From Chloroflexota bacterium (GTDB lineage Bacteria; Chloroflexota; Limnocylindria; QHBO01): a DNA stretch of 64,000 nt. The DNA lies in the NCBI GenBank assembly GCA_025699005.1, contig JAILWI010000002.1, positions 303,246 through 367,245 on the forward strand, written 5' to 3'. Below are positions 11,547 through 37,324 of this stretch, piece by piece (position 1 is the stretch's first letter; the number at the start of each line of letters is the position of its first letter). The notes under the pieces were generated by a model. It was not told the origin of the DNA. It ran no database searches and saw only the letters and a list, made by a program, of their open reading frames with translations. The position numbers and the translations under genes were made by a program.

Positions 11547-11648
11547 CCGTTGGAACCGGGCGATGCCCGCGTGAGCTACGAGGCCATGCCCTTGCTGTAT
11601 CGGCTCGGCGGGCGGTTTCTTCGGCGGGGACCTGGGCCGAACGCGCAC

Positions 11649-14996: not shown

Positions 14997-15182
14997 CCCG
15001 CTAGGGGTGGGGGCGGCACGAATCGTGGTGCTGCCGCGCACCGGGACGGATCGCCGGGGTCCGGGTGGGAGCGTGGACTCCTGCCCGGCCCGGCTTGCGT
15101 CATGTGACGCCGCGCCTATGATGTCCCGGGCCATCATCATCCCACTGCCCGCCCATGCCCGGCGGCGGAGGCAATCCACACC

Positions 15183-20892: not shown

Positions 20893-23228
20893 GCACTACG
20901 GGCGACAGGCGCGGCCACCGCCGAAGCCGCCGCATCCTCGTCGGTCTGGTTCTCGGCGCACTGGTGCTCGTCAACGGGGCGCTCATCTGGTACGCCGTGA
21001 GCCGGCTGACGCCGGGCGATTCGGCCACTGCGAGTGCTCTGATCTATGCGCAGGGGAACGTCCGAGCCGGGCCCGGCTCGGCGGCGCCGCAGGTCGCAAC
21101 GATGCTCGGTCGACACAACTTCGACGCGCTGCTGATGCTGGGCGACCAGGTCTCCGGCATGGGAGCCCTCACCGAGTTCGAGGACGAGTATGACCCCGTC
21201 TTCGGCTCGTTCGCCCAGCGGACCCGACCCACACCGGGGGATGGCGAGTACTCGATCCCCGAGGCCCGCGGGTATTTCACGTACTTCACCGACCGAGGCC
21301 GGCACCTCGACCGTCGCCCGTACTACGCCTTCTCCTTCGGCGGATGGCGGCTCTACTCACTGAACTCCGAAATCGCGCATGGCACGCCCGACGCGCCCAT
21401 GTTCCAGTGGCTCTTGTCCGACCTGGAGGCGCGACCCAGCGACTGCATTCTGGCCTACTGGCACGGCGGCCACCGCGCCGACGGTGAGGCAACGGAGGGC
21501 ATGGAGCTGATCGAAACGGTCCTGGCGGCCCGCGGGGCCGAGATCATCCTCGATGCGTCGGAGCGTAACTACCAGCGACACGCGCCGAGATCCGGCGTGA
21601 CTCGCTTCGTCGTGGGCACGGGCGGTGAGGCACTCGAGCCGCTGCCAGCCGCCACGGATGGCGTGGCGTTCGCGGTCGATGACACGCACGGCTCGCTCGA
21701 GCTGGTCCTGCGGCCGGGCGTCGCGCGGTACGGGTTTCGGACCGTTGACGACAAACTGATCGACGAGGGGGAGTTGCGCTGCCAGCCGCCCGACGGTGGC
21801 CCGGACGAGGTCCCGCCCACGCTGCCGACCGACGCGCAGTACGAAGCCGGGGAGACGGGGGACCGGATCACCTGGGGCGCGAGCACCGACGACCGTGGGC
21901 TGCTCGGGTACGTGGTGACCCGCGGCCTCGATCCCGTTGCCTTCACCACCGAGCCGATGATCGACCTCCCGCCGGCGAGCGGTACCGCCGTGTACGGTGT
22001 GGCGGCCATCGATCAAGCGGGCAATCTCTCGGACGCCGTCCGCGCCGCAGGCACCGCCACGACGGCCGGGTTCCGCGACTTCGAGTGGGGGACGCTCGAC
22101 GAGAACCCGGTTGCGCCGACCGCCGACAAGGCCCAGAGCAAGGTGTGGTGGCACGACGGAAGCTGGTGGGGGCTGCTGTTCCGGCCCGGGAGCGCTGACA
22201 CGCGCGGCTTCCACATCATGCGCCTCGATGGGGCCAGTCAGAGCTGGGTCGACACGGGAGCCCGCGCCGATGAGCGCGATCGCAGCCGCGCCGACGTGCT
22301 GTGGGACGAATCGGCGGAGAAGCTCTACATCCTCTCAACGGCCAGGCGTGGGTCGATCAAGCTTTACCGCTACTCGTACGAGTCGGGTGCCTTCGCATTG
22401 GACGAGGGCTATCCGGCGCGTATCAGCGAGGATGGCTCGGAATCGGTGGCGATCGCACGCGACTCGAATGGTGTCCTGTGGGCCACCGCCACGAAGACAC
22501 CCGAGGGCGGTCAGTGCGTCGAGGAGAGTCCATGCACCGTGCAGGTCGCGCACTCGCTCGATCGCGATTTCCGCTGGACGCCATTTACGACACTGCCGTT
22601 CGATCAGGCGACCGTCTCACCCGACGACATCTCGGCGGTCGCGGCCTACGGCGAGGATGAGATTGGCGTCATCTTCTCGAACCAGGCGGTCGGTGGCTTC
22701 TTCTTCGCGAGCCGCGCCGACGACGCGGCGGACGACGAGTGGACGATCGAGGTCATCGAGGAGAATCCGCGCGTCTCGGACGATCACATGAACTTCAAGG
22801 TCGACGCTCAGGGGAGGCCGGTCGTCGTCGGCAAGACATCCCTGAATGATCCGGCGAACGCACCCCCGGACCTCGCCCTGGTCACGCTCTACATTCGGGA
22901 AGGGGAGAACCAGTGGCGACGTGCGACCATCTGGACCGTGGCCGATGACGTCACCCGCCCACAGGTCGTCGTCACGGAGGACGAGATCGTCGCCGTTGCC
23001 GCCTATCCCTCGGGCGGAGGAGCCATCTACGCGAAGCGGGCGCCGCTCACGGATCCCGTGTTCGTTCCTGGCCTCGGGGACCTCCTGATGACCGACGCCG
23101 ACCTCAACAACCCGACGATGACCAAGCAGCTGATCACCGTAGAGATGGGATCGCCCCTGGTCCTAGCCAGCGCCGATGAGACGCGCACGTACTGGCATGC
23201 GGTCGTCGGGTCGGGGCCGCCCGAATGA
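20889..23228 (+). CDS. membrane-anchored calcineurin-like metallophosphoesterase (purple-acid-phosphatase-like) fused to a propeller-like domain (WWHDGSWWG)
   Basis: ATGA overlap with the CPBP gene. N-terminal TM anchor. MPP motifs: LMLGDQVSG, PGDGEY, YYAFSFGGWRLYSLNSE, ILAYWHGGHRAD, VVGTGGE. C-terminal half is paralogous to the N-terminal domain of the 15183-17663 protein (KVWWHDGSWWGLLF..., BNR-like DSNGVLWATAT). Confidence 0.65.
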   Translation: MSTTGDRRGHRRSRRILVGLVLGALVLVNGALIWYAVSRLTPGDSATASALIYAQGNVRAGPGSAAPQVATMLGRHNFDALLMLGDQVSGMGALTEFEDEYDPVFGSFAQRTRPTPGDGEYSIPEARGYFTYFTDRGRHLDRRPYYAFSFGGWRLYSLNSEIAHGTPDAPMFQWLLSDLEARPSDCILAYWHGGHRADGEATEGMELIETVLAARGAEIILDASERNYQRHAPRSGVTRFVVGTGGEALEPLPAATDGVAFAVDDTHGSLELVLRPGVARYGFRTVDDKLIDEGELRCQPPDGGPDEVPPTLPTDAQYEAGETGDRITWGASTDDRGLLGYVVTRGLDPVAFTTEPMIDLPPASGTAVYGVAAIDQAGNLSDAVRAAGTATTAGFRDFEWGTLDENPVAPTADKAQSKVWWHDGSWWGLLFRPGSADTRGFHIMRLDGASQSWVDTGARADERDRSRADVLWDESAEKLYILSTARRGSIKLYRYSYESGAFALDEGYPARISEDGSESVAIARDSNGVLWATATKTPEGGQCVEESPCTVQVAHSLDRDFRWTPFTTLPFDQATVSPDDISAVAAYGEDEIGVIFSNQAVGGFFFASRADDAADDEWTIEVIEENPRVSDDHMNFKVDAQGRPVVVGKTSLNDPANAPPDLALVTLYIREGENQWRRATIWTVADDVTRPQVVVTEDEIVAVAAYPSGGGAIYAKRAPLTDPVFVPGLGDLLMTDADLNNPTMTKQLITVEMGSPLVLASADETRTYWHAVVGSGPPE

Positions 23229-23238
23229 GGTCGGACCG

Positions 23239-24366
23239 ATGATCGTCACGATGCCCGGACCGGTGACCCTGCATATCGCCAGCCACGACGAGCGTGTTCG
23301 GTCGGTGGTCCTGGAGCAGCTCGACCCGTTTCGCGGCGCCGAACCGCCAGAGGGCGCCCCCGCGGACGTTGTGATCGAGGACCTCGATCCGGCCGCCGTG
23401 CGGGTGTCCGAGATGCAGCGGTTGGCGGGGGACGGCTTCGAGACTGTGAGCGACGGCACCAGCCTGTACGCGGTGACCGGCGACACCCTGTGCCGCCTGC
23501 CGGACGCCGCGGGGGACGGGCCGCTCCGGTTCGCCGTCGGCCCCGGATTCCCGCTGCGGCCGATGTTCCGGTCGATGGTTCGCCCGACGCTCCAGGCACG
23601 GATGCTGGATCGCGGTGCCCTGGCGATCCATGGCGCCTGCGTGCATCACGGTGATGGGGCCGTGCTCGTGACCGGGTGGTCGGAGAGCGGGAAGACGGAG
23701 ACGGCGCTCGCCCTGCTGGAGCGGGGTGCGACCTTCGTTTCAGACAAGTGGACCGTGGTGGAGCCCGGGGCGCGCGCAGGGACGTTTCCGGTCGGGGTCG
23801 GGATTCGGCGCTGGATGCTTCCGTACGCCCCCAAGCTCGCGAACCATCTGCCACGCGCTGCTCGGATGCAGCTGACGGGAGCCGGAGTCGCGGGAGCGGT
23901 TTCATCACCGGTCCGCCGCATGCAGCCCCGCGGCCGGCTCGGCCGCTTGCTCGTCGGGACGGTCGATCGGGCGGTGCAGCTGGCCGACCGGGTGGCTCTG
24001 ACGCCGACCGATCTCGCGACGATCTACGGCTCGCCCGGAGATCCGGACGCAACGTGGCCGATCCGCGGCGTCGTCATCCTGCGCACCGTGCCGGGCGACG
24101 AGGTGTCCGCAGGGACGGTCGACGTGAGCGCGATCGCTCGACGGCTGGCATGGTCCGCGATGGTCGAGCGCGCCGAGTTCCACGCCTATCGTCACCGTGC
24201 GGCCTACGCGCTCGCCTGGGGCGAGGACGACCTCGCGCGTCGGATGTTCGACATCGAGTCGTCCCGCATCGGCGCGTTGCTGGCGGAAGTCCCGAGCGTA
24301 GAGGTTGCGGCGCCCTTCCCGATGGACCCCGGTCGCATCGTGGACGCAGCCCTAACAAGACTGTGA
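23239..24366 (+). CDS. HprK/P C-terminal-domain-like P-loop kinase (HprK-related kinase)
   Basis: Walker A-like GWSESGKTETALALLERGATFVSDKWTVV resembles the HprK/P nucleotide-binding loop (GxSGxGKSExALEL...GH.LVaDD). There is no N-terminal HprK domain and no PTS genes nearby. Confidence 0.6.
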   Translation: MIVTMPGPVTLHIASHDERVRSVVLEQLDPFRGAEPPEGAPADVVIEDLDPAAVRVSEMQRLAGDGFETVSDGTSLYAVTGDTLCRLPDAAGDGPLRFAVGPGFPLRPMFRSMVRPTLQARMLDRGALAIHGACVHHGDGAVLVTGWSESGKTETALALLERGATFVSDKWTVVEPGARAGTFPVGVGIRRWMLPYAPKLANHLPRAARMQLTGAGVAGAVSSPVRRMQPRGRLGRLLVGTVDRAVQLADRVALTPTDLATIYGSPGDPDATWPIRGVVILRTVPGDEVSAGTVDVSAIARRLAWSAMVERAEFHAYRHRAAYALAWGEDDLARRMFDIESSRIGALLAEVPSVEVAAPFPMDPGRIVDAALTRL

Positions 24367-25379
24367 GCGCCGGCGATCGGGTGGTGCTCGACACCGAGCC
24401 CGTCCCGGGCGTGCCACTCCGCATCCGGGGAGACGGTGCGGTGGTCGATCACTTCCGCCGTGAGTATGGCTCCGGCGACGTGATCGGCGGTGCCGCGCCG
24501 GCGCTGGACGTGACGTTCGGTGCGGCCCCGGCCGGTGCCACGCCACCGACGATCGTGGGCCGTCACAAGACGGTCGGTTGGAAGGTGTGGCCTCCGCGGC
24601 CCCAGACCGATGATCCCGCCATGGAGATCATGCTGTCCGGTCGGCCGCGCTGGTTCGCGCTCTCGCTCGTGCAGGGGTACATCGTTGAGCCGATGCTCTC
24701 GCTGGCAGCCGCCCGGCGTCGGTCAGTACTGCTGCCCGCCGCGGCCATCGCGTCACCCAACGGCGCCGCGGTGCTCGTGGGTCGCTCACGGACGGGCAAG
24801 AGCTCCGTGTGCGCGATGGCCCTGGCGAACGGGCATGCGGTGCTCGGGGACGACCAGGTCGTCATCGATGCCAGCGGGGTCTCGCGGTTCCCGCGCCGTA
24901 TGCGGTTCTACGATGACCTGGAGCGCACGGCACCGTCGGCGTTCCGACGGCTCACGGCGACGCATCGCGCCTCGCTGCTGATCCGGCGTGTCGTGCGAAT
25001 CGGGACTCGCGGCCTGGTTGCGCCGTCACTTGCCGTTCCGGCCGAGGATCTCGGCCAGGTTGCGTGGGGTCCGCTGCCGGCCACACGCGTGTTCTGGATC
25101 GAGCGCGGCGCCAAGGGGGATGCGCTCCACCGTCGCGACCTGTCCCTCGACGAGCTGCTCGACGCGTCCTCGGCGATTCTGGCCGCGCAGCGCCAGGCGC
25201 TCGGCGCATGGACGGACCAGGCACCGAGCGTGAGCCTCAGAGCGATCGGCGACGGCGAGCGGGCAACGCTCGCCGCAGCGTTCGCCGACGCATCGCTCGA
25301 GCGCCTCGCGATTCCCGACGCGTGGGACGCGTCGAGATCCGTGCGGGAGGTGGCGCGGGTGGTTGGTGTTGCGTCGTGA
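24363..25379 (+). CDS. HprK/P C-terminal-domain-like P-loop kinase (second paralog)
   Basis: GTGA overlap with the previous gene. VLVGRSRTGKSSVCAMALANGHAVLGDDQVVID closely matches the HprK/P P-loop plus the downstream GH..DD segment. Confidence 0.6.
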   Translation: MSAGDRVVLDTEPVPGVPLRIRGDGAVVDHFRREYGSGDVIGGAAPALDVTFGAAPAGATPPTIVGRHKTVGWKVWPPRPQTDDPAMEIMLSGRPRWFALSLVQGYIVEPMLSLAAARRRSVLLPAAAIASPNGAAVLVGRSRTGKSSVCAMALANGHAVLGDDQVVIDASGVSRFPRRMRFYDDLERTAPSAFRRLTATHRASLLIRRVVRIGTRGLVAPSLAVPAEDLGQVAWGPLPATRVFWIERGAKGDALHRRDLSLDELLDASSAILAAQRQALGAWTDQAPSVSLRAIGDGERATLAAAFADASLERLAIPDAWDASRSVREVARVVGVAS

Positions 25380-26302
25380 TGGTCCCCTGGCATTTCTCCG
25401 TCGTGTTCGTCGTCCTGGGCGCTGTCCTGACCGCGTGCCAGTCCTCGAGCGCACCGACGCCACAGGCCACGGTCAGCCACGCGGCGACGACACCGAGCAT
25501 GGAGCCCGCCACGCCGCCGCCGTCGGGAAGCACGGTGCCGGCGCGTCCGAGCCGCGTGTTCGCGGTCGGCGACATGGCGAGCGACAACGATCGAGACGAG
25601 CGGGTCGTGAACATGATCGAATCCCATGATCCGGACGCCCTGCTGGCGCTGGGCGATCTCGTCTACCCCGACGGGACGATCGAGAACTACAGCGCGTTCT
25701 ATGCGACGAGCTACGGCACCTTCGACGGCATCGTGTGGCCGACGCCGGGCAACCACGACTACGTGGAGGACGACCTCTCCGGCTACCGCGCGTACTTCGG
25801 CACGCACGCGCCGCACGTGCCGGATGCGCCGTACTACGAGTTCGAACTGGGCGGCTGGCATTTGTTCGCGCTCAACTCGGAGATCGGCGAGGGTGAGGCG
25901 GGCAGCGACCAGTACGCGTGGCTCGAGGAGCGCTTGGAGGGCCGGGACGAGGCCTGCGTGGCGGCGTACTGGCACTCGCCGGTGTACACCATCGGCCGCA
26001 AGCCGTTCGACGAGGACGGCATGCTCGAGCTGCTGGAGCTGCTGATGGAGCACGACGTCGATCTCGTGCTGACCGGCCACGACCACAACTACCAGCGCTG
26101 GGAGCTCGACGGGCTCGCGTACTTCGTGGTCGGCACAGGGGGCCGATCGCGATACGACCTCGAGCGGACCGATGACCGCGTGATGGCCGCCACGGATGAC
26201 GAGAACGGAGCCCTCGAGTTGGTGCTCGAACCCGGCGGCGCGGCCTTCCGGTATTTCACCATGAGGGACGAGATCTTCGACCGGGGCAGCATCACCTGCT
26301 GA
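25379..26302 (+). CDS. calcineurin-like metallophosphoesterase lipoprotein (purple-acid-phosphatase-like)
   Basis: Start overlaps the upstream stop. Lipobox LTAC after the signal peptide. MPP motifs GDMASDND, GDLVYPDG, GNHDY, LTGHDHNYQR, VVGTGG. Confidence 0.7.
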   Translation: MVPWHFSVVFVVLGAVLTACQSSSAPTPQATVSHAATTPSMEPATPPPSGSTVPARPSRVFAVGDMASDNDRDERVVNMIESHDPDALLALGDLVYPDGTIENYSAFYATSYGTFDGIVWPTPGNHDYVEDDLSGYRAYFGTHAPHVPDAPYYEFELGGWHLFALNSEIGEGEAGSDQYAWLEERLEGRDEACVAAYWHSPVYTIGRKPFDEDGMLELLELLMEHDVDLVLTGHDHNYQRWELDGLAYFVVGTGGRSRYDLERTDDRVMAATDDENGALELVLEPGGAAFRYFTMRDEIFDRGSITC

Positions 26303-26307
26303 CCCCG

Positions 26308-26350
26308 GAGTGGTGCCAGCTGTCACCACTCGCCAGTACGAAAGTACTGG
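26308..26350. terminator. two consecutive perfect-stem hairpins/palindromes immediately after the 25379-26302 gene
   Basis: GAGTGGTG-CCAGCTGT-CACCACTC (26308-26331) then CCAGTAC-GAAA-GTACTGG (26333-26350). Likely terminator and/or operator between the phosphoesterase operon and the RND locus. Confidence 0.35.
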
Positions 26351-26600
26351 ACAAACCGGGACCGATCTGCACATCATCGGCCCACGTCGGATGAGACGCC
26401 GGGTGCACTCCGAGCACACCAGGCGACGGGGGAACCGACACGGAGGATAGGGACCGTGCATCGCCCGAGGATGCGCCGTACCGGCTCTCTCGCTGCTGCG
26501 GCGAACGATCCGCGCGACCTGGGAAGCATCGGCTGACCATGCCTCGCATGCTGCCCGCCAGGCCGTTCCGAACCAGCATCCACCATCCGGTGACTGCGTG

Positions 26601-29600
26601 ATGGCAGGCATCGTCCGCTGGAGCCTACGCTTCCGCCGGCTCGTCGTGGCACTCGCCGCGGTCACGATCATCTTCGGCTTCACCCAGCTGTCGAGCGCGC
26701 CGGTCGACACCCTGCCCGAGTTCTCGCCACCGTACGTGGAGGTGCAGACCGAGGCCCTGGGCCTGTCCGCCGAGGAGGTGGAGCAGCTCATCACCGTGCC
26801 GCTCGAGGCCGACCTGCTCAACGGCGTGGCGTGGCTGGACAAGATCGAGTCGCAGTCCGTCCAGGGCCTCTCGTCGATCGTGATGACCTTCGAGCCAGGC
26901 ACGGACCCGATCCGCGCCCGGCAGGTCGTGGCGGAGCGCCTGACCCAGGCCCACGCCCTTCCGAACGTCTCCAAGCCGCCGGTCATGCTGCAGCCGCTCT
27001 CGTCGTCGAACCGCGTGCTGATGATCAGCCTGACGTCGGACGAGCTGTCGCTGATTGACATGTCGGTGCTCGCGCGCTGGACCGTCAAGCCGCGACTGCT
27101 CGGTGTCCCCGGGGTGGCCAACGTGTCCATCTGGGGCCAGCGGGAGCGCCAGCTCCAGGTCCTCGTCGACCCGCATCACCTGCAGGCGGCGGGCGTGTCC
27201 CTCGACGAGGTGGTCGAGACGGCCGGCAACGCGCTGTGGGTCTCCCCCTTGAGCTTCCTCGAGGCCTCGACCCCCGGCACGGGCGGCTTTATCGACACCC
27301 CGAACCAGCGGCTCGGGGTGCAGCACGTGCTGCCGATCGACTCGGCCGATGACCTCGCCCAGGTCACGGTCGCCAGCGAGGACGCCCGGTACCGCCTAGG
27401 GGACGTCGCCACGGTGGTGGAGGACCATCAGCCGCTCATCGGCGACGCCATCGTCGGCGAGGGCGACGGCCTGCTTCTCGTCGTCGAGAAGTTCCCCGGC
27501 ACCGACACCCTGACCGTCACGCGCGACGTCGAGGACGCCATGGCGGCGCTCGCGCCCGCGATCACCGGGATCGACGTGGACACCACGCTCTTCCGGCCGG
27601 CGACGTTCCTGGAGCAGGCGCTCGACAACGTCACGCTGGCCATCCTCATCGGCCTCATCCTGGCGATCGCCGTGATCACGGCACTGCTCCGCGACTGGCG
27701 TGCGGGCGTGGTCAGCCTGGTCACGATTCCGCTGTCGCTGGTGCTCGGGGGCCTCGTGCTCCTGGCGCTCGGCGCGACGTTCAACGCCATGGTCGCCGCA
27801 GGCCTCGTCGTCGCGCTCGCCATCGTCATCGACGACACGGTGACGACGAGCGCCAGCATCAGGGCACGCGCCGATGGGGCCTCCGGCGGCACGGACGAGG
27901 CGTCGACCCTCGCGCGCACCGTGCGCGGCGTGATCGCCGTCCGCGGCACCACCTTCTACACCCTGGTGGTGCTCGGACTGAGCGTCATTCCGCTGTTCTT
28001 CGTCGGCTCGGAGCTGGGGGCCATGCTCCCGTCGCTCGCCACGGCGCTCATCGTCGCCCTGCTGGCGTCGGTGCTCGTTTCGATCACGGTCGCCCCGGCC
28101 CTGGCCTTCATGCTCGGCAGTGGCCGCCCCGCGCCGGCGCGCGAGACGCGCCTCATCGCCCGCGGGCAGGCCGCCTACGGCACCACGCTGACCCGCGTGC
28201 TCGATCGGTCGAGGCCGATGCTCCTGGGGGTATCGGCCGTCGCCGTGGTCGCCGTCCTCGGCTTTGGCGCATGGGTCGCCCCCGGCGTCGCGAGCTCGGC
28301 CACGCCGGAGTTCCGCGATCGCAACATTCTGGTCCACTGGGACGGCGCGCCCGGATCCTCACACGGGGCCATGCGCCGCATCGTGGCGGAGGCCAGTGCC
28401 GACCTGCGCGCCATCCCGGGCCTCGAGAACGTCGGGGCCCACATCGGGCGGGCCATTTTCTCCGACCAGGTGGGAGGCATCAACGACGGCGATATCTGGC
28501 TGACCATCGCGCCCGACGCCGACTATTCGGCGACGGTGGCCGCGGTCGAGCAGGTGGTCGCCGGGTTCCCCGGCATGAGCCGGGGGGTGGCAACCTACGG
28601 CGCCGATCGCGTGGAGCAGATCGTGGGCACGGAGACCGACGACATCGTGGTCCGCGTGTACGGCGAGGATCAGGCGGTCCTGGGGACGCAGGCAGATGCG
28701 GTGCTCGGTGCCGTGCGCACCATTCCGGGCGTTGCGGAGGCGCGCATCGACGCCCCGACCATGGAGCCGACCGTTCGGATCACCGTTGACCTCGCGGCCG
28801 CCGAGCTCAATGGCCTGACGCCCGGCGCCGTGCGCCGGACGGCGACGACTCTGCTCTCGGGCCTGGAGGTCGGCAGCCTCTTCGAGGGCCAGAAGGTCTT
28901 CGAGGTCGTGGTCTGGGGCGTCCCCGCACTGCGGGAGAATCTCTCGACCATCCAGGCCCTGCCGATCGAGACGTCCACCGGCCGGATGGTGACCCTCGCT
29001 GACGTCGCCGACATCGAGATCGCGCCGGCGCCGGTCAGCATCTATCGCGAGGGCGTGCAGCGCGTGCTCGACGTCGCCATCTCGGTGGCGGGTCGTGACG
29101 TCGGCGGCGTGCTGCGCGATGTCGAGACGGCCCTGGCCGGCGTGGCGTTCCCCGTGGAGACGCACGCCGAGGTGCTGGGCCTCACCGCGGAGCGCTCGGC
29201 TCAGCAGGGCGCGCTTCTCGCCGTGGGAGCGGCGGCCCTCATCGGCATCCTGCTCGTGCTCCAGGCCGCGCTCGTCAGCTGGCGTGTCGCGGCGCTCGTG
29301 CTCCTCAGCCTGCCGGCGGCACTGTCGGGCGGCATCGTGGTGGCGCTCGTGTTGGGCACGCAGGCCACGTTCGGGGCACTGCTCGGGCTGCTGGCGGTGC
29401 TCGCCATCGCCGTGAAGCAGGCGCTGCTGCTCATGGACCATTACCGCGACCTCGAGGCCGGCGGAGCGACGCGGGACGAGTGGCTCGTGATCCGGGGAGC
29501 CCGGGAGCGAATGGTGCCGACGGTGACCACCGCGCTCGCCGTCGCGGCGGCCCTGGTGCCGTTCGCGATCCTCGGCAACCAGGCGGGAGCCGAGATCATT

Positions 29601-29762
29601 CATCCGATGTCGCTCGTGGTGCTGGGCGGGCTCGGGACCACGCTGCTCGTGAACCTGTTCTTCCTGCCGTCACTCCTGACGCCCATGGGCATGAGCCCCG
29701 AGGTCGAGGAGGTGGCGATCCCCGTAGAGACCGCCGAACGCCGCGTGATTGGAGCGAGCTGA
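26601..29762 (+). CDS. HME-type RND efflux permease (CzcA/CusA family)
   Basis: 1054 aa. N-terminus (IVRWSLRFRRLVVALAAV...LSSAPVDTLPEFSPPYVEVQT) matches the CzcA-type N-terminal consensus. About 12 TM helices and two large periplasmic loops. A GTG at 26598 is also possible. Confidence 0.85.
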   Translation: MAGIVRWSLRFRRLVVALAAVTIIFGFTQLSSAPVDTLPEFSPPYVEVQTEALGLSAEEVEQLITVPLEADLLNGVAWLDKIESQSVQGLSSIVMTFEPGTDPIRARQVVAERLTQAHALPNVSKPPVMLQPLSSSNRVLMISLTSDELSLIDMSVLARWTVKPRLLGVPGVANVSIWGQRERQLQVLVDPHHLQAAGVSLDEVVETAGNALWVSPLSFLEASTPGTGGFIDTPNQRLGVQHVLPIDSADDLAQVTVASEDARYRLGDVATVVEDHQPLIGDAIVGEGDGLLLVVEKFPGTDTLTVTRDVEDAMAALAPAITGIDVDTTLFRPATFLEQALDNVTLAILIGLILAIAVITALLRDWRAGVVSLVTIPLSLVLGGLVLLALGATFNAMVAAGLVVALAIVIDDTVTTSASIRARADGASGGTDEASTLARTVRGVIAVRGTTFYTLVVLGLSVIPLFFVGSELGAMLPSLATALIVALLASVLVSITVAPALAFMLGSGRPAPARETRLIARGQAAYGTTLTRVLDRSRPMLLGVSAVAVVAVLGFGAWVAPGVASSATPEFRDRNILVHWDGAPGSSHGAMRRIVAEASADLRAIPGLENVGAHIGRAIFSDQVGGINDGDIWLTIAPDADYSATVAAVEQVVAGFPGMSRGVATYGADRVEQIVGTETDDIVVRVYGEDQAVLGTQADAVLGAVRTIPGVAEARIDAPTMEPTVRITVDLAAAELNGLTPGAVRRTATTLLSGLEVGSLFEGQKVFEVVVWGVPALRENLSTIQALPIETSTGRMVTLADVADIEIAPAPVSIYREGVQRVLDVAISVAGRDVGGVLRDVETALAGVAFPVETHAEVLGLTAERSAQQGALLAVGAAALIGILLVLQAALVSWRVAALVLLSLPAALSGGIVVALVLGTQATFGALLGLLAVLAIAVKQALLLMDHYRDLEAGGATRDEWLVIRGARERMVPTVTTALAVAAALVPFAILGNQAGAEIIHPMSLVVLGGLGTTLLVNLFFLPSLLTPMGMSPEVEEVAIPVETAERRVIGAS

Positions 29763-29763
29763 G

Positions 29764-30207
29764 ATGACCGGACAACGCCGACTGCTGCTGGTGGGGACCC
29801 TCGCGCTGGTGGTCCCGCTGGGCGCCTGCGCCGAAGGGAGTTCGGAGCATCACGGCGAGGAGCCCGCGGTCCTGGAGCCGGTGGGAGGTGACGACGGCCT
29901 TCTTCGCATCCGCCTCACCGAGAACGCCGCGGCGCGGCTGGCCATCGAGACGGCACCGATCGAGTCGGCCTCGGGCGGCATGTCGTCCGTGCCCTACGGA
30001 GCCATCTTCTACGGCACTGATGGAGAGACCTGGGTCTACATCAGCCCCGAGCCCCTGGTCTTCATGCGCGAGCCGGTCGTGGTCGATCGGATCGAGGACG
30101 GCGTGGCCCTCCTGACCAACGGACCGCCCGAGGGCACGGCCGTGGCGACGGTCGGCGTGGCCGAGCTGTTCGGCACCGAGATCGGCATGGGCGGGGCCGC
30201 CCACTAA
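29764..30207 (+). CDS. small lipoprotein (147 aa) between the two RND genes
   Basis: ATG 29764 is 2 nt after the RND stop. Signal peptide plus lipobox (LVVPLGACAEG). It may be a minimal periplasmic adaptor-like beta-domain, which is inference only. Confidence 0.45.
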   Translation: MTGQRRLLLVGTLALVVPLGACAEGSSEHHGEEPAVLEPVGGDDGLLRIRLTENAAARLAIETAPIESASGGMSSVPYGAIFYGTDGETWVYISPEPLVFMREPVVVDRIEDGVALLTNGPPEGTAVATVGVAELFGTEIGMGGAAH

Positions 30208-30239
30208 GCAAACCCCGCACGAAGGACGCGGTCCCCGCC

Positions 30240-33200
30240 ATGCGCGCCATCATCTCCGCCAGCCTCCGGTTCCGTTACATCGTCGTGGCCCTCACCGCCG
30301 CGATGATGGCGTTCGGCATCGGCGAGGTGCAGCGCATGCCGGTGGACGTGTTCCCCGAGTTCGCTCCGCCACGCGTGGAGATCCAGACCCCGTCCTTGGG
30401 CCTGTCGGCCGCCGACGTCGAGGAGCTCGTCACCGTTCCGCTGGAGGAGGTGCTGGCCGGCGTCGACGGACTCGACGTCATCCGCTCGAAGTCCGTGCGC
30501 GACCTGTCTTCGGTGCTCCTCATCTTCGAGCCGGGCACCGATCTCATCCAGGCGCGCCAGCTCGTCCAGGAACGGGTGAATCAGGTCACGCCGTCGCTGC
30601 CCAGCTGGGCGAGTCCGCCGTTCATGCTCCAGCCGCTCTCGTCCACGAGCCGCGTGATGAAGATCGGCATGACCTCGGACACGCGGTCGCTCATGGACAT
30701 GTCGATGACCGCCTACTGGAAGGTGCGGGCTCGGCTGCTCGGCGTCCCCGGGGTGGCGCACGTCGCCATCTGGGGCGAGCGTCTCCAGATGCTCCAGGTG
30801 CAGATGGACCCCGTGCGTATGGCGCGGCACCGCGTGACGGTGCACGAGGTCATGGAGTCGACTTCGGCCTCGTTGGACGAGGGCATCCTCCAGTTCAGCG
30901 ACGGCAACATCATCGGTACCGGCGGGTTCATCGACACGCCCAACCAGCGGCTGGCCATCGCCCACGTGCCGCCGATCAAGCAGCCGGACGACCTCCAACA
31001 CGTCATGGTCGAGACGCGGGACGGTCGCCAGGTGCCGATCACCTCGGTGGCGGAGCTCGTCACCGACCACCAGCCGCTAATCGGCGACGCGGTCATTGAC
31101 GACGGGCCGGGCTTGATGCTCATCGTCGAGAAGTTCCCGTGGGCGAACACGCTGGACGTGACGCGAGGCGTGGAGGCGGCCCTGGCCGAGCTGGAGCCGG
31201 CCATGGGCGGGATCGTGGTCGATGCCGAGATCTTCCGTCCAGCCACGTTCATCGAGACGGCCCTGGAGAACTTGACCCGCGCCCTTCTTCTGGGCTCGAT
31301 CCTCGTGGTGATCGTGCTGCTCCTGTTCCTGTTCGAGTGGCGCACGGCACTCATCAGCATCATCGCCATCCCTACCTCGCTGATGGCGGCGGCACTCGTG
31401 CTGAACTGGCAGGGCGCGACCATCAACACCATGGTGCTTGCGGGATTCGTCATCGCCGTCGGCGTGGTGGTGGACGACGCCATCATCGATATTGAGAACA
31501 TCGTCCGCCGCCTGAGGCAGCATCGCCGCGCCGGGAGCACGAAGTCGACCACGTCGATCGTGATCGAGTCATCGCTCGAGGTCCGCTCGGCGATCCTGTA
31601 TGCCACGCTCATCGACGTGGTGGCGGTGGCGCCGATCTTCTTCATCGGCGGGCTGTCGGGCGCGTTCTTCCAGCCGCTGATCCTCGCCTACGCGCTCGCC
31701 ATCCTGGCCTCCATGGTGGTCGCGCTGACGATCACTCCGGCCCTCGCCTACGTGCTGCTGCGCAATGCTCCGACCGAGCGCAGCGAGTCGCCGTTCGCCG
31801 AGTGGCTCCGTCGCGGCTACGAGCGCGTGCTCTCGAAAATCGTGGTCAGGCCCCGGAATGCCTACGCGGCCGTCGGCTCGATCATGCTCGCCGGCGCCCT
31901 CGTCTATCCGCAGCTCGGCCAGTCGCTCCTCCCCGATTTCAAGGAGCGTGACTTCCTGATGCACTGGCTGACCGCCCCCGGCACGTCATTGCCGGAGGAG
32001 GTGCGCATCTCCGAGCGCGCCTGCGTCGAGCTCCAGACCATCCCGGGGGTGCGCAACTGCGGCGCCCACATCGGCCAGGCGCTGCTCATGGACGAGGTGG
32101 TGGGCGTGGACTTCGGCGAGAACTGGATCAGCGTCGATCCGTCGGTCGACTACGACGCCACGCTCGCCTCGGTCCAGGAGGTCGTCGACGGCTATCCCGG
32201 GCTGATCCGCGACGTCCAGACCTACCTCAAGGAGCGCATCCGCGAGGTCCTGACGGGGTCGAGTGACGCCATCGTGGTCCGGATCCACGGCCGCGACCTC
32301 GACGTGCTGCGCGACGTTGCCGAGGACGTCGAGGAGGAGATGGCTGCGATCGACGGGCTGGTTGATCTCCATGTCGAGCGCCAGCGAGAGATCCCGGAGA
32401 TCACCGTCGAAGTCGATCTCGAGGCTGCGCTCGTGCACGGCATCAAGCCGGGAGATGTCCGTCGCGTCGCATCGACCCTCATTGCCGGCGAGGAGGTTGG
32501 AGATATCTTCTTCGGTGGCCGCGCCTATGACGTGCAGGCATGGAGCACTCCAGAGACACGTGCCGATCTGACGAGCATCGAGGAGCTGCTCATCGACACC
32601 CCGTCGGGCAATCGAATCCCTCTGGGTGAAGTGGCGCGGATCACCATGGCGCCGACGCCGAACGCCATCTTCCACGAGGGGCTGTCGCGACGGCTCCACG
32701 TCGAGGCCAACGTTCGTGGCCGCGATCTGGGTGCCGTGGTGCGCGACGTCGAGGCCGCCATCGCCCGGGTCGAGTTCCCGCAGGAGTACCACCCCGAGCT
32801 TCTCGGTGAGCTGCAGGAACGCGAGGCTGCAGAAGGGCGCCTCCTGCTCTTCGGCATCGGCGCCGCATTCGGCATCTTCATCCTGCTCGTTACCTCCTTC
32901 GGCGTCGTGCGTGTCGCGCTGCTGTCGTTCCTGACTCTGCCGTCGGCGCTCGTGGGTGGCGTCCTCGCTGCCTGGGTCGGCGGTGGAGTCATCTCACTCG
33001 GTTCCCTCGTCGGGTTCTTCACGATCCTCGGGATCGCTGCTCGCAACGGCATCATGATGATCAATCACTTCCAACACCTTGAACGCTACGAGGGCATGGA
33101 GTTCGGTCCCGAGCTCGTCATTCGCGGCGCCCGCGAGCGCCTCGCGCCGATCCTCATGACGGCGTCGGCCACGGGCCTGGCGCTCATTCCGCTCGTGATC

Positions 33201-33377
33201 GCCGGCGATCTGCCCGGGCACGAGATCGAGCACCCGCTCGCGATCGTCATCCTGGGAGGCCTCGTGACGTCCACGCTCCTCAACCTGTTCGTCGTCCCGT
33301 CGCTCTACCTCCGCTTCGCTCGTGACTGGCGACGCCACGGATCCGATGGCGACGCGCAGGCGGGAACCCCGGCGTGA
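30240..33377 (+). CDS. HME-type RND efflux permease (CzcA/CusA family), second paralog
   Basis: 1045 aa, collinear with 26601-29762 (MRAIISASLRFRYIVVALTAAMMAFGIGEVQRMPVDVFPEFAPPRVEIQT...). Confidence 0.85.
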   Translation: MRAIISASLRFRYIVVALTAAMMAFGIGEVQRMPVDVFPEFAPPRVEIQTPSLGLSAADVEELVTVPLEEVLAGVDGLDVIRSKSVRDLSSVLLIFEPGTDLIQARQLVQERVNQVTPSLPSWASPPFMLQPLSSTSRVMKIGMTSDTRSLMDMSMTAYWKVRARLLGVPGVAHVAIWGERLQMLQVQMDPVRMARHRVTVHEVMESTSASLDEGILQFSDGNIIGTGGFIDTPNQRLAIAHVPPIKQPDDLQHVMVETRDGRQVPITSVAELVTDHQPLIGDAVIDDGPGLMLIVEKFPWANTLDVTRGVEAALAELEPAMGGIVVDAEIFRPATFIETALENLTRALLLGSILVVIVLLLFLFEWRTALISIIAIPTSLMAAALVLNWQGATINTMVLAGFVIAVGVVVDDAIIDIENIVRRLRQHRRAGSTKSTTSIVIESSLEVRSAILYATLIDVVAVAPIFFIGGLSGAFFQPLILAYALAILASMVVALTITPALAYVLLRNAPTERSESPFAEWLRRGYERVLSKIVVRPRNAYAAVGSIMLAGALVYPQLGQSLLPDFKERDFLMHWLTAPGTSLPEEVRISERACVELQTIPGVRNCGAHIGQALLMDEVVGVDFGENWISVDPSVDYDATLASVQEVVDGYPGLIRDVQTYLKERIREVLTGSSDAIVVRIHGRDLDVLRDVAEDVEEEMAAIDGLVDLHVERQREIPEITVEVDLEAALVHGIKPGDVRRVASTLIAGEEVGDIFFGGRAYDVQAWSTPETRADLTSIEELLIDTPSGNRIPLGEVARITMAPTPNAIFHEGLSRRLHVEANVRGRDLGAVVRDVEAAIARVEFPQEYHPELLGELQEREAAEGRLLLFGIGAAFGIFILLVTSFGVVRVALLSFLTLPSALVGGVLAAWVGGGVISLGSLVGFFTILGIAARNGIMMINHFQHLERYEGMEFGPELVIRGARERLAPILMTASATGLALIPLVIAGDLPGHEIEHPLAIVILGGLVTSTLLNLFVVPSLYLRFARDWRRHGSDGDAQAGTPA

Positions 33378-34312
33378 CGCGCACGCTCGGCCGCGTTCGC
33401 GTCCTGCCCATCCCGATGGTGGCCGCGCTGCTGCTGTCAGCCTGCGGCTTGGTTGCGGGTACCCCGCTGCCGACGGTCGCCCCCGCGAGTGCCGGGGCCA
33501 CGCCCACCGTCGCCCCGTCGCCGAGCGCCTCGGCGCCGGACGGCGACCTGCCGCCACCGTTCCCGTACGAGAGCCTCGGCGACCCCACCACCGTCACGAA
33601 CCCGTACCTGCCCTTGGTGCCGGGCACCTACTGGAGATGGGAGGGTGTGACCGTGGAGGACGACGAGGAGATCCCGCACCAGATCATCACCATGGTCACC
33701 GACATGACGAAGATGATCGACGGCGTGTCGACCATCGTCGGGTACGACGAGGACTGGGCGGACGGCGAGCTGGTCGAAGCCGAGATCTTCTTCGCCGTCC
33801 AGGACGACGACGGCAATGTGTGGCGTCTCGGCGAGTACCCCGAGGAATACGAGGGTGGGCAGATGGTCGCCAACCCGGCATGGGTCGCGGGGGCGGACGG
33901 CGCGCTCGCGGGCGTCATGATGCCGGCCGAGCCGGCGCGCGGCGGACAGAGCTACGCGCAGGGCTGGGGACCGGGGGTCGGCTGGGCAGATCGCGGATGG
34001 GTGATCGTCGACGGCGACCAGGATTGCGTGCCCGCCGGGTGCTACGAGGACGTGATCGTCGTCCAGGAATGGGACATCGCCGAGCCACTGGCCCGCCAGC
34101 TGAAGTTCCATGCCCCGGGGGTCGGGGTGATTCGCGTCGACTGGTCGGGGAGCGCCGACCAGAGCCAGGAGTCCCTCGAGCTGGTCGAGTTCCGCCAGCT
34201 GACGGACGAGGAGCTGGCGGACCTTCGCGAGAAGGCGCTGGCCCTGGAGGAACGAGCTCACGACACACTTCCCGGGCTCTTCTCCGATACCGAGCGCATG
34301 CAGCCGATCTGA
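33374..34312 (+). CDS. hypothetical lipoprotein (312 aa)
   Basis: GTGA overlap with the RND gene. Signal peptide plus lipobox (LLLSACGLVAG) and a PST-rich linker. No identifiable catalytic motif. Confidence 0.5.
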   Translation: MTRTLGRVRVLPIPMVAALLLSACGLVAGTPLPTVAPASAGATPTVAPSPSASAPDGDLPPPFPYESLGDPTTVTNPYLPLVPGTYWRWEGVTVEDDEEIPHQIITMVTDMTKMIDGVSTIVGYDEDWADGELVEAEIFFAVQDDDGNVWRLGEYPEEYEGGQMVANPAWVAGADGALAGVMMPAEPARGGQSYAQGWGPGVGWADRGWVIVDGDQDCVPAGCYEDVIVVQEWDIAEPLARQLKFHAPGVGVIRVDWSGSADQSQESLELVEFRQLTDEELADLREKALALEERAHDTLPGLFSDTERMQPI

Positions 34313-34337: not shown

Positions 34338-35336
34338 GTGGGCGTTTCCAGTCTCGAGCCGGCCGATGGCTCAACGTTCCTCCTGCAGGCGCACGACCTG
34401 CAGATGTCGTACGGCCCGCGCCGGGCGCTGCGCGGACTCTCGTTCTCGCTCGGTGCCGGGAGGATCCTCGGCTTCCTGGGGCCCAACGGAGCGGGAAAGA
34501 CGACGGCCATCCGCATCCTGACCACCGTGCTCGAGCCGACGGCCGGCCATTTCGAGGTCGGCGGCATCCGCTCCGACGAGCCGGATCGAATCCGCGGACG
34601 GATCGGCGTGCTGCCCGAGAATCTCGGCTTCCCGCGCCACATGACCGGGCTCGAGTACCTGACCTATTTCGGCGAGCTGTTCGGGCTCGCGCAATCCGCC
34701 GCCCGGGAGCGGGCCATCGGCCTGCTGGATGACGTCGGGCTGGCGCAGCGCGGGACGTCCCGCATCGGCTCGTACAGCCACGGCATGCGCCAGCGCCTCG
34801 GCATCGCCCGTGCCCTCGTCAACGAGCCGCTCGTGATCTTCCTGGACGAGCCCACGCTCGGGCTCGATCCGCGTGGCCAGCAGGAGCTGCTGGCGCTCAT
34901 CCGGCGCGTGGCGAGTGAGCGCGGCGCGAGCATCGTGCTGTGCAGCCACTCGCTCCCCGAGATCGAGGGGATCTGCGACGACGTCGTGATCCTGAATCTC
35001 GGTCAGGTCGTCGCCGCGGGGACGGTCGCGGAGGTCATCGACCAGGCGGGGAGCGAGGTGCTCCACGTGCGCGTCGACCCCGCATCGGCTGAGCGCGCGC
35101 GCGACGCGCTCCTGGCGGTCGTCGGGGTCGCGGACGCCTCGGTCAGCGACGCGCTCACCGGCCGGGTGGTGATCAGGCTCGGCGAGGCGGCAGACGGGCC
35201 GCCGGACAGACCGGGCATTCGCGACGCCGTTCTTGCCGCCCTGGTAGCCGCCGAGATCCCGGTGATCAGCTTCGGCTACACCGGAAATCGACTCCAGGAC
35301 CTGTTCCTCCAGGTCACGGATGAGGCGATCTCATGA
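34338..35336 (+). CDS. ABC transporter ATP-binding protein
   Basis: Walker A GPNGAGKTT, ABC signature SHGMRQRLGIARAL, Walker B VIFLDEPTLGLD. Confidence 0.85.
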   Translation: MGVSSLEPADGSTFLLQAHDLQMSYGPRRALRGLSFSLGAGRILGFLGPNGAGKTTAIRILTTVLEPTAGHFEVGGIRSDEPDRIRGRIGVLPENLGFPRHMTGLEYLTYFGELFGLAQSAARERAIGLLDDVGLAQRGTSRIGSYSHGMRQRLGIARALVNEPLVIFLDEPTLGLDPRGQQELLALIRRVASERGASIVLCSHSLPEIEGICDDVVILNLGQVVAAGTVAEVIDQAGSEVLHVRVDPASAERARDALLAVVGVADASVSDALTGRVVIRLGEAADGPPDRPGIRDAVLAALVAAEIPVISFGYTGNRLQDLFLQVTDEAIS

Positions 35337-37324
35337 GCGAATCGATCCAGGAGCTCGGGGCGCTCCAGCCCGGGGCGCGGGTCCGGACGGCGACACGCGT
35401 GCGCCCCACGTGGTGGGTGGTGATGGCCAACGAGATCCACGGCCTGTGGGTGGGCGGCAAGGCGCCGATCCTGCTGCTGCTCTACAGCATCGTGCTGGGC
35501 GCGCACGCCTTCGTGACGGCGTACAACGTCGAGCTCAGCCTGATGCCGCCCAACGAGATGGTGTACGAGACGGTGAAGACCGCCATCTCGGTGGGGATCT
35601 TCCTGGGGATGATGATCGGCGCCGATGCCATCAGCGGGGAACGGGAGCGAGGAACGCTCGAGGCTCTGCTCCTGACCCCCACCCGTCGCCGGCAGGTGGT
35701 GATCGGCAAATTCCTGGCCGCGCTCACCCCGTGGCCGGTTGCCTTCGTGCTGACCATCCCGTACCTCGCGGTGCTCGGGCAGGGCCACGAGGTCCTGCTG
35801 CCGGCCATCGCCTGGGGTGCCGTGCTCGGCACCGTGCTGACCGTGGCGTACACGGGAACGGGGCTGCTCGTCAGCCTATGGTCGAACAACAACCGCACCA
35901 GCTACCTCGTCAGCCTGGGCATCTACATCCTCATCCTCGTCCCGTCGCAGCTTCCCGGTCGGGCCCAGACGGGCGCCGCCGGCCAGTTCCTGCAGCAGGT
36001 CAACCCGCTCGCCGCCCTCAACCATTTCCTGTCGAAGATCCTCGTCAACAACCGCACCTTCGAGGAATTCGGCACCTGGCTGCTCTCGCCGATCATCTTC
36101 GCGACGGTGGTGATGGTCCTGCTCGTCGGCGTCTCGGCCCCGCGCCTGCGACTCGAGGCCGGGCGCCTTGCTCGCGCCGACGGCGTGATCGGCCGGGCGT
36201 TCGGGCGCCTGGGCGGGCTGTTCGTCCTCGTGGCCGCGCTGGTCATCCCTGCCGCATCCTTCGCCTCATCGACCACGGGCACGGTGGCGCCGTCCAGCCA
36301 GGTGGCGTCGGATGGGGTCCCGGTCGAGATCTCCGTGGATCTCGAGTACCAGACGGTCAACACCGGCGATGCGGTGTTCTTCGACACGGTGGTGACGAAC
36401 CCGACCGACGTCGCGAGCGCGCCCCTCATCGTGGCGATGAACATCATCAACCTCGACCAAGAGGGCGACGTCGTCGACCCCGAGGACTGGTCGCCCGAGC
36501 GAACCCAGTACGTCGACCGGCTGGATCCGGGTCAGTGGGCCATCCTCTCCTGGCGTGTGAACGCCATCCTGGATGGCGACTACATCGTGTACATGGTGGT
36601 CATGCCGCAGCCCGCCGCGGCGGACGCCACGAGCCAGGCGGTGGCAAGCTCGGGCATCCACCTGACCGTGCTTCCGTTCACGCGGCTGAATCCCGGAGGT
36701 GTCATGCCGCTGGTGCTGGGGGCGCCGACCGTGCTCGCCATCGGCACGGGTCTGATCCTGTCGATTCGGCGGCGTGAGACCGGTGGCGGAGGCCGCCCGC
36801 TGAAGTACCTGCGGCTCCCGGTGGTGCTGGGTGGTGTGGTGCTCTCCCTGGTCGTCCTCAGCGGCTTCGCGGTGATGTCGCAGCCACCGTCCGCCGGGAT
36901 TCCCGGCCAGAGTGGGGTCCGCACCGAGGACGACGGAAGCACGACAATGACGGTAGAGACGCTCACCGGCGCCGAGGACTTTGCGTACGCGCAGACGGCG
37001 TACGAAGTTCCGGCAGGAGCTCCGCTCACCGTCGAGCTCTATAACCGGACCGATCCGGCCGATGAGATCGGTCACAACTGGGTGCTCGTCGAACCCGGTC
37101 AGGAGGCGGCCGTTCTGGCCAGCGGTTTGGAGGCGGGAGATGACCTCGATTGGCTCGACATCGACGCGCCCGGGATGATCGCCCACGTTCCGCTCATCGA
37201 AGGCGGGGAGAGCAACGCTGTCACGTTCGACCCGCCGCCGCCCGGCACCTACACGTTCATCTGCACGTTCCCGGAACATCATGCCGGTGGGATGATCGGG
37301 ACACTGACGGTTGTGGAGCCATGA
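35333..37324 (+). CDS. ABC-2 family permease (NosY-like) fused to a C-terminal extracytoplasmic type-1 copper (cupredoxin) domain
   Basis: ATGA overlap with the ATPase. N-terminal 6-TM ABC-2 permease with the GERERGTLEALL motif. An extra TM is followed by a cupredoxin domain carrying all four type-1 Cu ligands (His in IGHNWVLVEPG; Cys/His/Met in CTFPEHHAGGM). Confidence 0.7.
   Translation: MSESIQELGALQPGARVRTATRVRPTWWVVMANEIHGLWVGGKAPILLLLYSIVLGAHAFVTAYNVELSLMPPNEMVYETVKTAISVGIFLGMMIGADAISGERERGTLEALLLTPTRRRQVVIGKFLAALTPWPVAFVLTIPYLAVLGQGHEVLLPAIAWGAVLGTVLTVAYTGTGLLVSLWSNNNRTSYLVSLGIYILILVPSQLPGRAQTGAAGQFLQQVNPLAALNHFLSKILVNNRTFEEFGTWLLSPIIFATVVMVLLVGVSAPRLRLEAGRLARADGVIGRAFGRLGGLFVLVAALVIPAASFASSTTGTVAPSSQVASDGVPVEISVDLEYQTVNTGDAVFFDTVVTNPTDVASAPLIVAMNIINLDQEGDVVDPEDWSPERTQYVDRLDPGQWAILSWRVNAILDGDYIVYMVVMPQPAAADATSQAVASSGIHLTVLPFTRLNPGGVMPLVLGAPTVLAIGTGLILSIRRRETGGGGRPLKYLRLPVVLGGVVLSLVVLSGFAVMSQPPSAGIPGQSGVRTEDDGSTTMTVETLTGAEDFAYAQTAYEVPAGAPLTVELYNRTDPADEIGHNWVLVEPGQEAAVLASGLEAGDDLDWLDIDAPGMIAHVPLIEGGESNAVTFDPPPPGTYTFICTFPEHHAGGMIGTLTVVEP

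Follow-up and report, generated by a model that had tools for sequence, protein, structure and literature searches.

To our knowledge, RND (resistance-nodulation-division) pumps resembling AcrB and CusA have been described as nearly exclusive to Gram-negative bacteria. The adaptors (membrane fusion proteins, MFPs) of tripartite pumps bridge the transporter to an outer channel and also appear to switch the pump on, and Gram-negative models make it hard to study one function apart from the other. The locus considered here lies in a 64,000-nucleotide stretch of a Chloroflexota genome (assembly GCA_025699005.1, contig JAILWI010000002.1, positions 303,246 to 367,245; hereafter the window), in which two RND genes, RND1 and RND2, stand on either side of a gene for a 147-residue lipoprotein. 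Our best reading of this triad is that it represents a reduced derivative of a tripartite RND lineage, independent of any outer-membrane factor (OMF), with a minimal adaptor and a pseudo-pump paralogue, and that systems of this kind are widespread and undescribed.

Parts of the arrangement have counterparts among described systems. The heavy-metal efflux (HME) systems CusCBA, ZneCBA and CzcCBA supply the best-scoring NCBIfam and PDB relatives and fall on the same side of the RND tree, but identity to them is 27%, and the system here, unlike them, has no OMF, full adaptor or CusF. A pump with two RND paralogues is known from the MdtB2C heterotrimer (PMC7015380), and MdtABC and MuxABC-OpmB, like the present locus, keep two RND paralogues from an ancient duplication in one operon. 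MdtB and MdtC, however, are HAE-1 proteins (100% bootstrap) that both keep the Asp-Asp (DD), Lys and Glu-Asn (EN) residues and, unlike the system here, work with the full adaptor MdtA and TolC, whereas one of the paralogues in our group is largely degenerate. BesA of Borrelia is without the alpha-hairpin only; it keeps the lipoyl and barrel domains and has the OMF BesC as partner (PMC4446572), whereas the 147-residue protein keeps the membrane-proximal (MP) domain alone. According to the same 2015 review, the adaptors of Gram-positive bacteria had been expected to be hairpin-less, yet were not, and a role for the MP domain in presenting cargo and coupling energy has been proposed (PMC4446572). 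In the MmpS-MmpL systems, too, a small membrane-anchored accessory protein is encoded beside an RND transporter in a Gram-positive lineage. The RND proteins here are nevertheless of the ACR_tran type (17.9 bits with TIGR00833, whose cutoff is 874.7), the small protein has the fold of an MFP MP domain, and the MmpS Pfam model matched no member of its family that we tested; an MmpS/MmpL (HAE-2) system was rejected on these grounds. We found no description of an MP-only adaptor or of a comparable RND pair in the searchable literature, reviews of 2015, 2021 and June 2026 included, and the latest phylogenomic survey, which dates from 2024 and covers HME, NFE and HAE-1 pumps, was designed to leave out the Actinobacteria, Chloroflexi and Firmicutes (PMC10872679).

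An adaptor reduced to its membrane-proximal domain

Because the window is about 70% GC, real genes were told from spurious open reading frames (ORFs) by their third-position GC content (GC3), which at 0.87-0.93 backs three co-directional genes (Table 1). The original prediction of two tandem RND genes around a 147-residue lipoprotein gene is upheld by GC3, by the ACR_tran matches, by the lipobox and by recurrence of the triad in 52 of 58 informative loci, as defined below. The gap in front of the lipoprotein gene, given as 2 nt, is 1 nt (the RND1 TGA ends at 29762 and the lipoprotein ATG begins at 29764); the lipoprotein gene ends 32 nt before RND2, and RND1 has an alternative GTG start at 26598 (1053 or 1054 residues). 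Both RND proteins match Pfam ACR_tran (PF00873; cutoff 28 bits, scores in Table 1) end to end, over positions 8-1016 (RND1) and 2-1020 (RND2) of a model of 1021. When 46 ORFs of high GC3 from the whole 64 kb, all nine genes between 20793 and 37324 among them, were scanned against Pfam, none matched an HlyD/MFP, OEP/TolC or metal-sensor family, in agreement with the earlier statement that MFP, OMF and metal regulator are missing from the flanks, although an OMF may be encoded elsewhere in the genome. Two ORFs just upstream, 396 and 412 codons long, were weighed as candidates for the missing MFP and rejected, since Pfam shows the first to be HPr-kinase-like and the second to be a metallophosphoesterase.

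At its start (MTGQRRLLLVGTLALVVPLGAC) the small protein has a signal peptide and, after it, the lipobox LGAC; its mature N-terminus in the window is rich in His and Glu (CAEGSSEHHGEE). Pfam and NCBIfam give no match for it, the MFP models of Pfam match none of 41 family members (the window protein included), phmmer against the PDB reaches just E 0.3 (4l8j), and comparison of profiles with CusB or AcrA singly gives E 0.02-0.05. Since such sequence-only searches fell short, recognition of the adaptor needed structure prediction and the clade's own adaptors. In the predicted structure the sole domain past the signal peptide and linker is MP-like. Structural comparison gave listed values of 10.5 for a SilB construct (N-terminus plus MP domain), 10.3 for CusB in the CusBA complex, 9.8 for BesA, 9.4 for MacA and 5.5 for TriAB, with the next, unrelated structure at 4.3; the closest MP domains are those of SilB and CusB. 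Foldseek concurs, with local matches of about 60-70 columns to CusB, AcrA, ZneB, BesA and TriA, and the family profile aligns to residues 323-382 of CusB and 306-365 of AcrA, which are their C-terminal MP segments.

The family itself, which comprises 2,691 representative clusters in an exhaustive profile search, supplies further evidence. In the family alignment most members are about 145 residues long, and lengths range from there via 240-336 residues up to a few of 417-525. Relatives of about 250 residues align at both ends and carry an insert of roughly 100 residues in the middle, between an N-terminal strand (LTxxAAERLGIETAPV) and a C-terminal block (VVPYxAVxY...). In the 240-336-residue relatives this insertion point is where an MFP chain exits the MP domain; in the 147-residue protein it is empty. 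Members of 321-336 residues match HlyD_D23 ('barrel-sandwich domain of CusB or HlyD') and HlyD_3 above gathering scores, within the insert. Three PGAP-annotated adaptors, from the sister operons described below, share the C-terminal MP domain of the small lipoprotein and match the family profile with hhalign probabilities of 98.5-99.3% (E 1e-15 to 1e-20) over their last 73-89 residues, the signature TVGVAELFGTEFG included. Because of the HlyD domains of the longer members, the hhalign matches to annotated adaptors and the MP fold, we conclude that the 147-residue lipoprotein is a periplasmic adaptor reduced to its MP domain. The beta-barrel, lipoyl and alpha-hairpin domains are absent from it (model and Pfam); what it retains is the MP fold, assembled from the N-terminal strand and the C-terminal block, together with a lipid anchor and a gene that adjoins a transporter. 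The proposal that this protein is a minimal adaptor, for which a comparison of its predicted structure with MFP domains had been recommended, is borne out by the fold, by the profile homology and by the longer members.

Two RND paralogues and their tripartite sister lineage

Both RND proteins score best with TIGR00914, the CusA/CzcA model of NCBIfam, at 567.8 bits for RND2 and 361.3 bits for RND1, under the cutoff of 701.45; their closest PDB relatives are ZneA and then CusA. The signature DFG-DGA-VEN in transmembrane helix 4 (TM4), which marks the HME1 and HME2 groups of Nies (PMC3637150), is missing in both: where ZneA has AIDFGIIVDGAIVVMEN, RND2 has VIAVGVVVDDAIIDIEN and RND1 has VVALAIVIDDTVTTSAS. 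The CusA type (HME4) is defined by a three-methionine site, M573/M623/M672, and a D405/E939/K984 relay. The RND2 group has H/F/V at the Met positions, Arg for E939 (58/58) and Ile for K984 (58/58), and TM10 carries Arg, not the Glu or Leu of HME proteins. In a neighbour-joining tree of 36 sequences (1025 columns, 200 bootstraps, three HME references), the HAE-1 proteins AcrB, MdtB and MdtC are set apart from all else with 100% support, and the possibility that the phylogeny would place our proteins with an HAE family has not been realized. Opposite HAE-1 stand the classical HME clade (100%) and a separate clade (100%) that unites the RND1 group (A, 100%), the RND2 group (B, 81%) and three plasmid-borne RNDs of tripartite operons (TRI, 96%). 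Since A and B are joined at 100%, a single duplication after the split from the TRI lineage is, on this tree, the origin of both. The sub-cutoff TIGR00914 scores, the missing DFG-DGA-VEN, the missing Met triad and the position outside the classical HME clade rule out CusA/CzcA membership, and the designation 'CzcA/CusA-type' first applied to these genes is not supported. In the databases, RND orthologues carry generic names at NCBI and 'CzcA family' at JGI. A plasmid of Nostoc sp. C057 (L093, 1325-9039) encodes a 557-residue adaptor followed by two tandem RND proteins, the first of which is the sister of the A+B+TRI clade (77% bootstrap) and has the DD / D / EN / Arg pattern in common with it.

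The TRI operons reside on plasmids of the diderm bacteria Methylomonas sp. DH-1, Hymenobacter yonginensis and Sphingobium yanoikuyae, where their RND proteins are annotated generically, and none of the three appears to have been characterised. The RND proteins are 50-54% identical to RND2 and have in common with it the TM4 sequence VVDDAIIDxEN, H575, H610, four Glu, R935, R967 and E997. Each operon comprises a TolC-family gene, an adaptor of 314-414 residues, one RND and a two-component system, as against two RNDs and a 147-residue adaptor here; that of Methylomonas is near mercury resistance (mer) genes, and that of Sphingobium is beside arsenic (ars) genes. Because its sister lineage combines a single RND with TolC and a full adaptor, we regard the locus as a stripped-down relative of a tripartite pump, much as had been proposed.

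The two RND proteins are indeed paralogues (44% identity over 1030 residues), but they are not the equivalents that the original prediction implied, the RND1 group having lost relay and site residues. In a comparison of 58 B-type and 56 A-type sequences, D412, D413, D417, E419 and N420 (TM4), R935 (TM10, at the position of AcrB K940), R967 and T974 (TM11), E995 and E997 are conserved in at least 56 of the 58 B proteins, as are H575, H610, E619, E627, E665 and E669 in the periplasmic cleft; all of these are identical in the TRI RNDs. The core proton relay is intact in 55/58 B and 10/56 A sequences, and the six-residue cleft site in 57/58 and 3/56, respectively. In the window, TM4 of RND1 (IVIDDTVTTSAS) is without the EN present in every reference RND, the equivalent of E997 is Ile, and those of Glu619 and Glu669 are Gln. 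The first periplasmic loop of the A group is conserved as in B (ratio 1.00), and TM4, TM10-11 and residues 641-680 are the least preserved regions, a pattern that would be expected of a non-catalytic structural subunit.

Distribution, mechanism and substrate

A scan of one genome per GTDB species yielded 265 loci, placing the small-protein family in at least 265 species genomes. Among the 80 loci that were fetched, 51 are from Actinomycetota, 15 from Chloroflexota and 13 from diderm lineages (Gemmatimonadota, Pirellulales, Bacteroidota, Chlamydiae, Omnitrophota and two Proteobacteria), and 1 is unassigned; cultured actinomycetotal hosts include Arthrobacter globiformis NBRC 12137, A. pascens DSM 20545, Cryobacterium gelidum and Naasia. 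An RND gene flanks the small gene on each side in 52 of the 58 informative loci (those with at least 3.4 kb on both sides of it), a recurrence that argues against a chance arrangement; the downstream RND of the triad is always B-type (52/52), and metagenomic contigs show the same order. There are six exceptions. In four loci (L042 and L045 as seen with Pfam, L048 and L051 as seen with tblastn) RND-A is followed by an ATP-binding cassette (ABC) ATPase, an ABC-2 permease and the adaptor, with RND-B last. A Chlamydiae locus is ordered adaptor, RND, RND, and the adaptor-family match at 8001-8423 of L058 (Arthrobacter sp. ISL-28) has no RND within 8 kb on either side, in sequence with no masked bases, and may stand alone or be what is left of a decayed locus. 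In L023, L029 and L035 three consecutive RND genes surround the adaptor gene, and in L029 the gene 5′ of the adaptor is B-type, not A-type. Adaptors of 242, 255 and 336 residues also occur in two-RND clusters without TolC, so that adaptor length varies within this architecture.

In tblastn searches with CusB, AcrA and CusC, 84 of 86 loci had nothing that matched within 8 kb; the other two, L005 and L017, gave weak CusB matches, that in L005 being the adaptor gene of an adjoining MacB-type ABC system. Orthologous Porin_O_P genes accompany the triad, with no OMF match, in five loci, four of them diderm (L036, 11520-12785; L046, 9534-10946; L077, 14366-15448; L085, 599-1879) and one unassigned (L002, 14891-16258). 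The hosts are Bacteroidota, Chlamydiae, Pirellulales and the unassigned organism, and the porins are 44-56% identical to one another across phyla, which suggests that the gene travels with the operon. Near the triad of the cultured Arthrobacter, Cryobacterium and Naasia we saw no regulators and unrelated metabolic genes only.

From what was observed, namely how the adaptor folds and what it is related to, the RND tree, the conserved residues and the recurrent gene order, we suggest that the triad probably encodes an OMF-independent pump, made up of a catalytic B, a structural A and an MP-only adaptor, that derives from a tripartite lineage related to the classical HME pumps yet distinct from them. 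RND2, whose Asp-Asp/Arg/Arg/Thr relay is complete and whose cleft holds a cluster of two His and four Glu, would be the proton-driven transporter. RND1, the ancient paralogue, would most likely take part in a mixed A/B trimer, as a structural or regulatory subunit, in the way that MdtB and MdtC do in E. coli. The lipoprotein would be the remnant of the cognate adaptor after loss of the hairpin, lipoyl and barrel domains, its MP domain docking on the periplasmic domains of the pump and probably stimulating the transport cycle or presenting substrate; that it binds and activates the pump we consider somewhat more likely than not. Substrate would exit via the pump's own funnel, no duct being needed where a single-membrane envelope leaves no outer membrane to cross. 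For a metal cation as that substrate the balance is, in our judgment, even: plausibility comes from the Glu and His residues of the cleft, from the position of the clade towards the HME pumps, from the likeness of the adaptor to SilB and CusB and from where the sister operons lie on their plasmids, and a cation is the favoured candidate. More tentatively, and with the scales tipped somewhat the other way, these loci may define a distinct and widespread RND class of single-membrane Actinomycetota and Chloroflexota in which an MP-only adaptor suffices for activation and the dead paralogue is an obligate subunit of the trimer.

Several observations weigh against this reading of the triad. The monoderm envelope to which the missing parts had been ascribed would fit the 66 of 80 loci in Actinomycetota and Chloroflexota; it does not fit the 13 diderm loci, at least four of which have the Porin_O_P gene, and because of these 13, loss of the outer membrane is not the whole story. 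Their hosts may encode TolC away from the locus. The tree is a neighbour-joining one with few reference sequences. The A/B hetero-oligomer, toward which we lean slightly, is suggested by co-occurrence and by the decay of A, and RND1 of the window keeps D412, D413, K935 and R967; because of these four residues it may retain some proton coupling. As to a metal, the scans found no metal regulator or riboswitch in the window or in related loci: at gathering thresholds Rfam has no match to a riboswitch or other known RNA anywhere in the window, nor in 26200-26700 at E <= 1, and eight related loci yielded tRNAs only. The surrounding genes are housekeeping ones (pentose-phosphate enzymes, cysS, fatty-acid synthesis, CTP synthase, Rho), the relay resembles that of AcrB, with DD and a basic TM10 residue, and an accessory lipoprotein of 312 residues, encoded after RND2, has a LolA-like fold typical of lipid carriers. 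Finally, a hint of a cation comes with a caveat: RND2 has R138, E619, E627, E665 and E669, four of them acidic and conserved in 57-58 of the 58 B proteins, at the positions of what we take to be the proximal Zn site of ZneA (E136, D602, E610, D654, D658), but literature searches gave no confirmation of that site, the sole check being that these positions fall on acidic residues in the 4k0e sequence.

The missing metal regulator, the housekeeping setting, the AcrB-type relay and the LolA-like lipoprotein together make export of a lipid, glycolipid or other hydrophobic envelope component a live rival, although on balance we think it unlikely. The LolA-like lipoprotein would then take up the cargo on the outer side of the membrane, as LppX and LprG do together with transporters in mycobacteria; adaptor remnant and A/B pair would be as we have proposed, and only substrate and physiology would differ. 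That lipoprotein accompanies the triad in 28 of 65 loci (about 40%), exporters of the ABC-2 class (DrrA/NodI/GldA type) are found repeatedly within the cluster, and the operon adjoins polysaccharide and surface-protein genes. Yet the LolA-like gene is missing from more than half of the loci, including all those of Arthrobacter, and the invariant four-Glu/two-His cleft, in which no conserved aromatic pocket was noted, would suit a cation better. The position of the clade on the HME side of the tree, SilB and CusB as top structural matches of the adaptor, and sister operons with two-component systems among mercury and arsenic resistance genes also speak for a metal.

Two other proposals alter the roles of the proteins. 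The small lipoprotein could be a soluble substrate-binding chaperone, in the manner of CusF or of the metal-binding N-terminus of CusB and SilB, with no part in pump regulation. Its His/Glu-rich mature N-terminus and the Gly-His end of close relatives would fit, but the N-terminal His and Glu are not conserved in the family, every invariant position lies within the MP fold, that fold differs from the OB-fold of CusF, and docking on the pump in CusBA is by way of the block conserved here; we regard a chaperone as rather improbable. A little more improbable still is that RND1 and RND2 are independent homotrimeric pumps for different substrates that share an operon by chance, the lipoprotein being accessory to one or both. 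Tandem RND genes with separate functions do occur in many genomes, ABC transporter genes part A from B at some loci, three RND genes stand in a row at others, and the four relay residues kept by RND1 of the window would suit a working pump. Against this, A lacks the core relay in 46/56 sequences and the cleft site in 53/56, the window RND1 is without the TM4 EN, and A is nonetheless kept, always with B, in 52 of 58 loci; the two stem from a single duplication (100% bootstrap), and selection on A maintains loop 1 rather than the energy-coupling helices.

Genomic setting and wider significance

Beyond the genes first noted, the operon extends downstream of RND2 with short gaps and overlaps, through the 312-residue lipoprotein gene (which overlaps RND2 by 4 nt), an ABC ATPase gene and an ABC-2 permease gene (Table 1). 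The 312-residue lipoprotein belongs to a family with no Pfam domain and more than 1100 clusters, some relatives of which reach about 500 residues. Its AF2 model (pLDDT 87) is a LolA-like open beta-barrel with a C-terminal helix, resembling LolA, LppX and LmcA. For the ATPase the best NCBIfam family is drrA, below its cutoff, and its orthologues lie inside the cluster in L042, L044, L045, L048, L051 and L096. The permease and its middle domain are orthologous to in-cluster genes of Gemmatimonadales and Chloroflexia loci, and the cupredoxin tail, which has the type-1 copper ligand motifs GHNWV and CTFPEHHAGGM, found no match in any other fetched locus. The ABC-2 and cupredoxin genes were rejected as core parts of the system, with orthologues in about 6-8 of 80 loci and the tail unmatched elsewhere; an ABC-2 permease that carries a blue-copper domain is in itself unusual.

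Table 1. Features of the RND operon and its leader (window coordinates)
Feature	Coordinates	Strand	Match or remark
Intergenic leader 5′ of RND1, likely operon promoter region	26303..26600	+	298-nt gap after metallophosphoesterase gene
RND1 (RND-A), divergent, probably non-catalytic RND paralogue	26601..29762	+	PF00873 ACR_tran, 511.7 bits; 1053 aa
147-aa lipoprotein, adaptor (MFP) cut down to the MP domain	29764..30207	+	
RND2 (RND-B), conserved, probably catalytic RND pump	30240..33377	+	PF00873, 703 bits; 1045 aa
312-aa lipoprotein, LolA-like open beta-barrel, frequent cluster accessory	33374..34312	+	
ABC transporter ATPase, DrrA-like, occasional cluster accessory	34338..35336	+	PF00005, 96 bits
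ABC-2 permease with extracytoplasmic domain, extra TM helix and azurin-like cupredoxin	35333..37324	+	PF12679, 71.8 bits; PF00127 Copper-bind, 44.6 bits

The leader in front of RND1 contains a single weak sigma-70-like match, at 26348-26377. Metallophosphoesterase/purple-acid-phosphatase-like secreted proteins are encoded just upstream of the triad (20793-23228 and 25064-26302), and similar phosphatase-like genes stand upstream in several unrelated loci (L001/L009, L014, L024, L036, L046); this proximity could be chance or could reflect a functional link such as metallation of exported enzymes. The same region encodes an HPr-kinase-C-like P-loop protein (23176-24366, below the Pfam cutoff) and, at about 24420-25379 in another frame, a further protein that has a GxxGxGKS motif but matches nothing in Pfam, the gene calls at 24367-25063 being uncertain. 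Farther upstream, a glycosyltransferase and polysaccharide-export cluster (9677-12881) precedes the genes of two large probable surface proteins (13035-17663), one with a NosD-like beta-helix, the other with Big_5 and Big_7 domains and a weak CopC match.

If the distinct class outlined more tentatively above is real, nature has already separated the adaptor's activation of the pump from the building of a duct. An MP-only adaptor in cells without an outer channel isolates the pump-activating job. The degenerate A protein, if structural, would add a new case of a transporter copy that is kept, without catalysis, as a structural subunit. For these genes, metagenome labels such as 'CzcA family heavy metal efflux pump' call for caution. 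The size of the small-protein family and its spread over at least 265 species genomes point to an overlooked group of pumps, for which the cultured strains of Arthrobacter globiformis, A. pascens and Cryobacterium gelidum offer tractable hosts.

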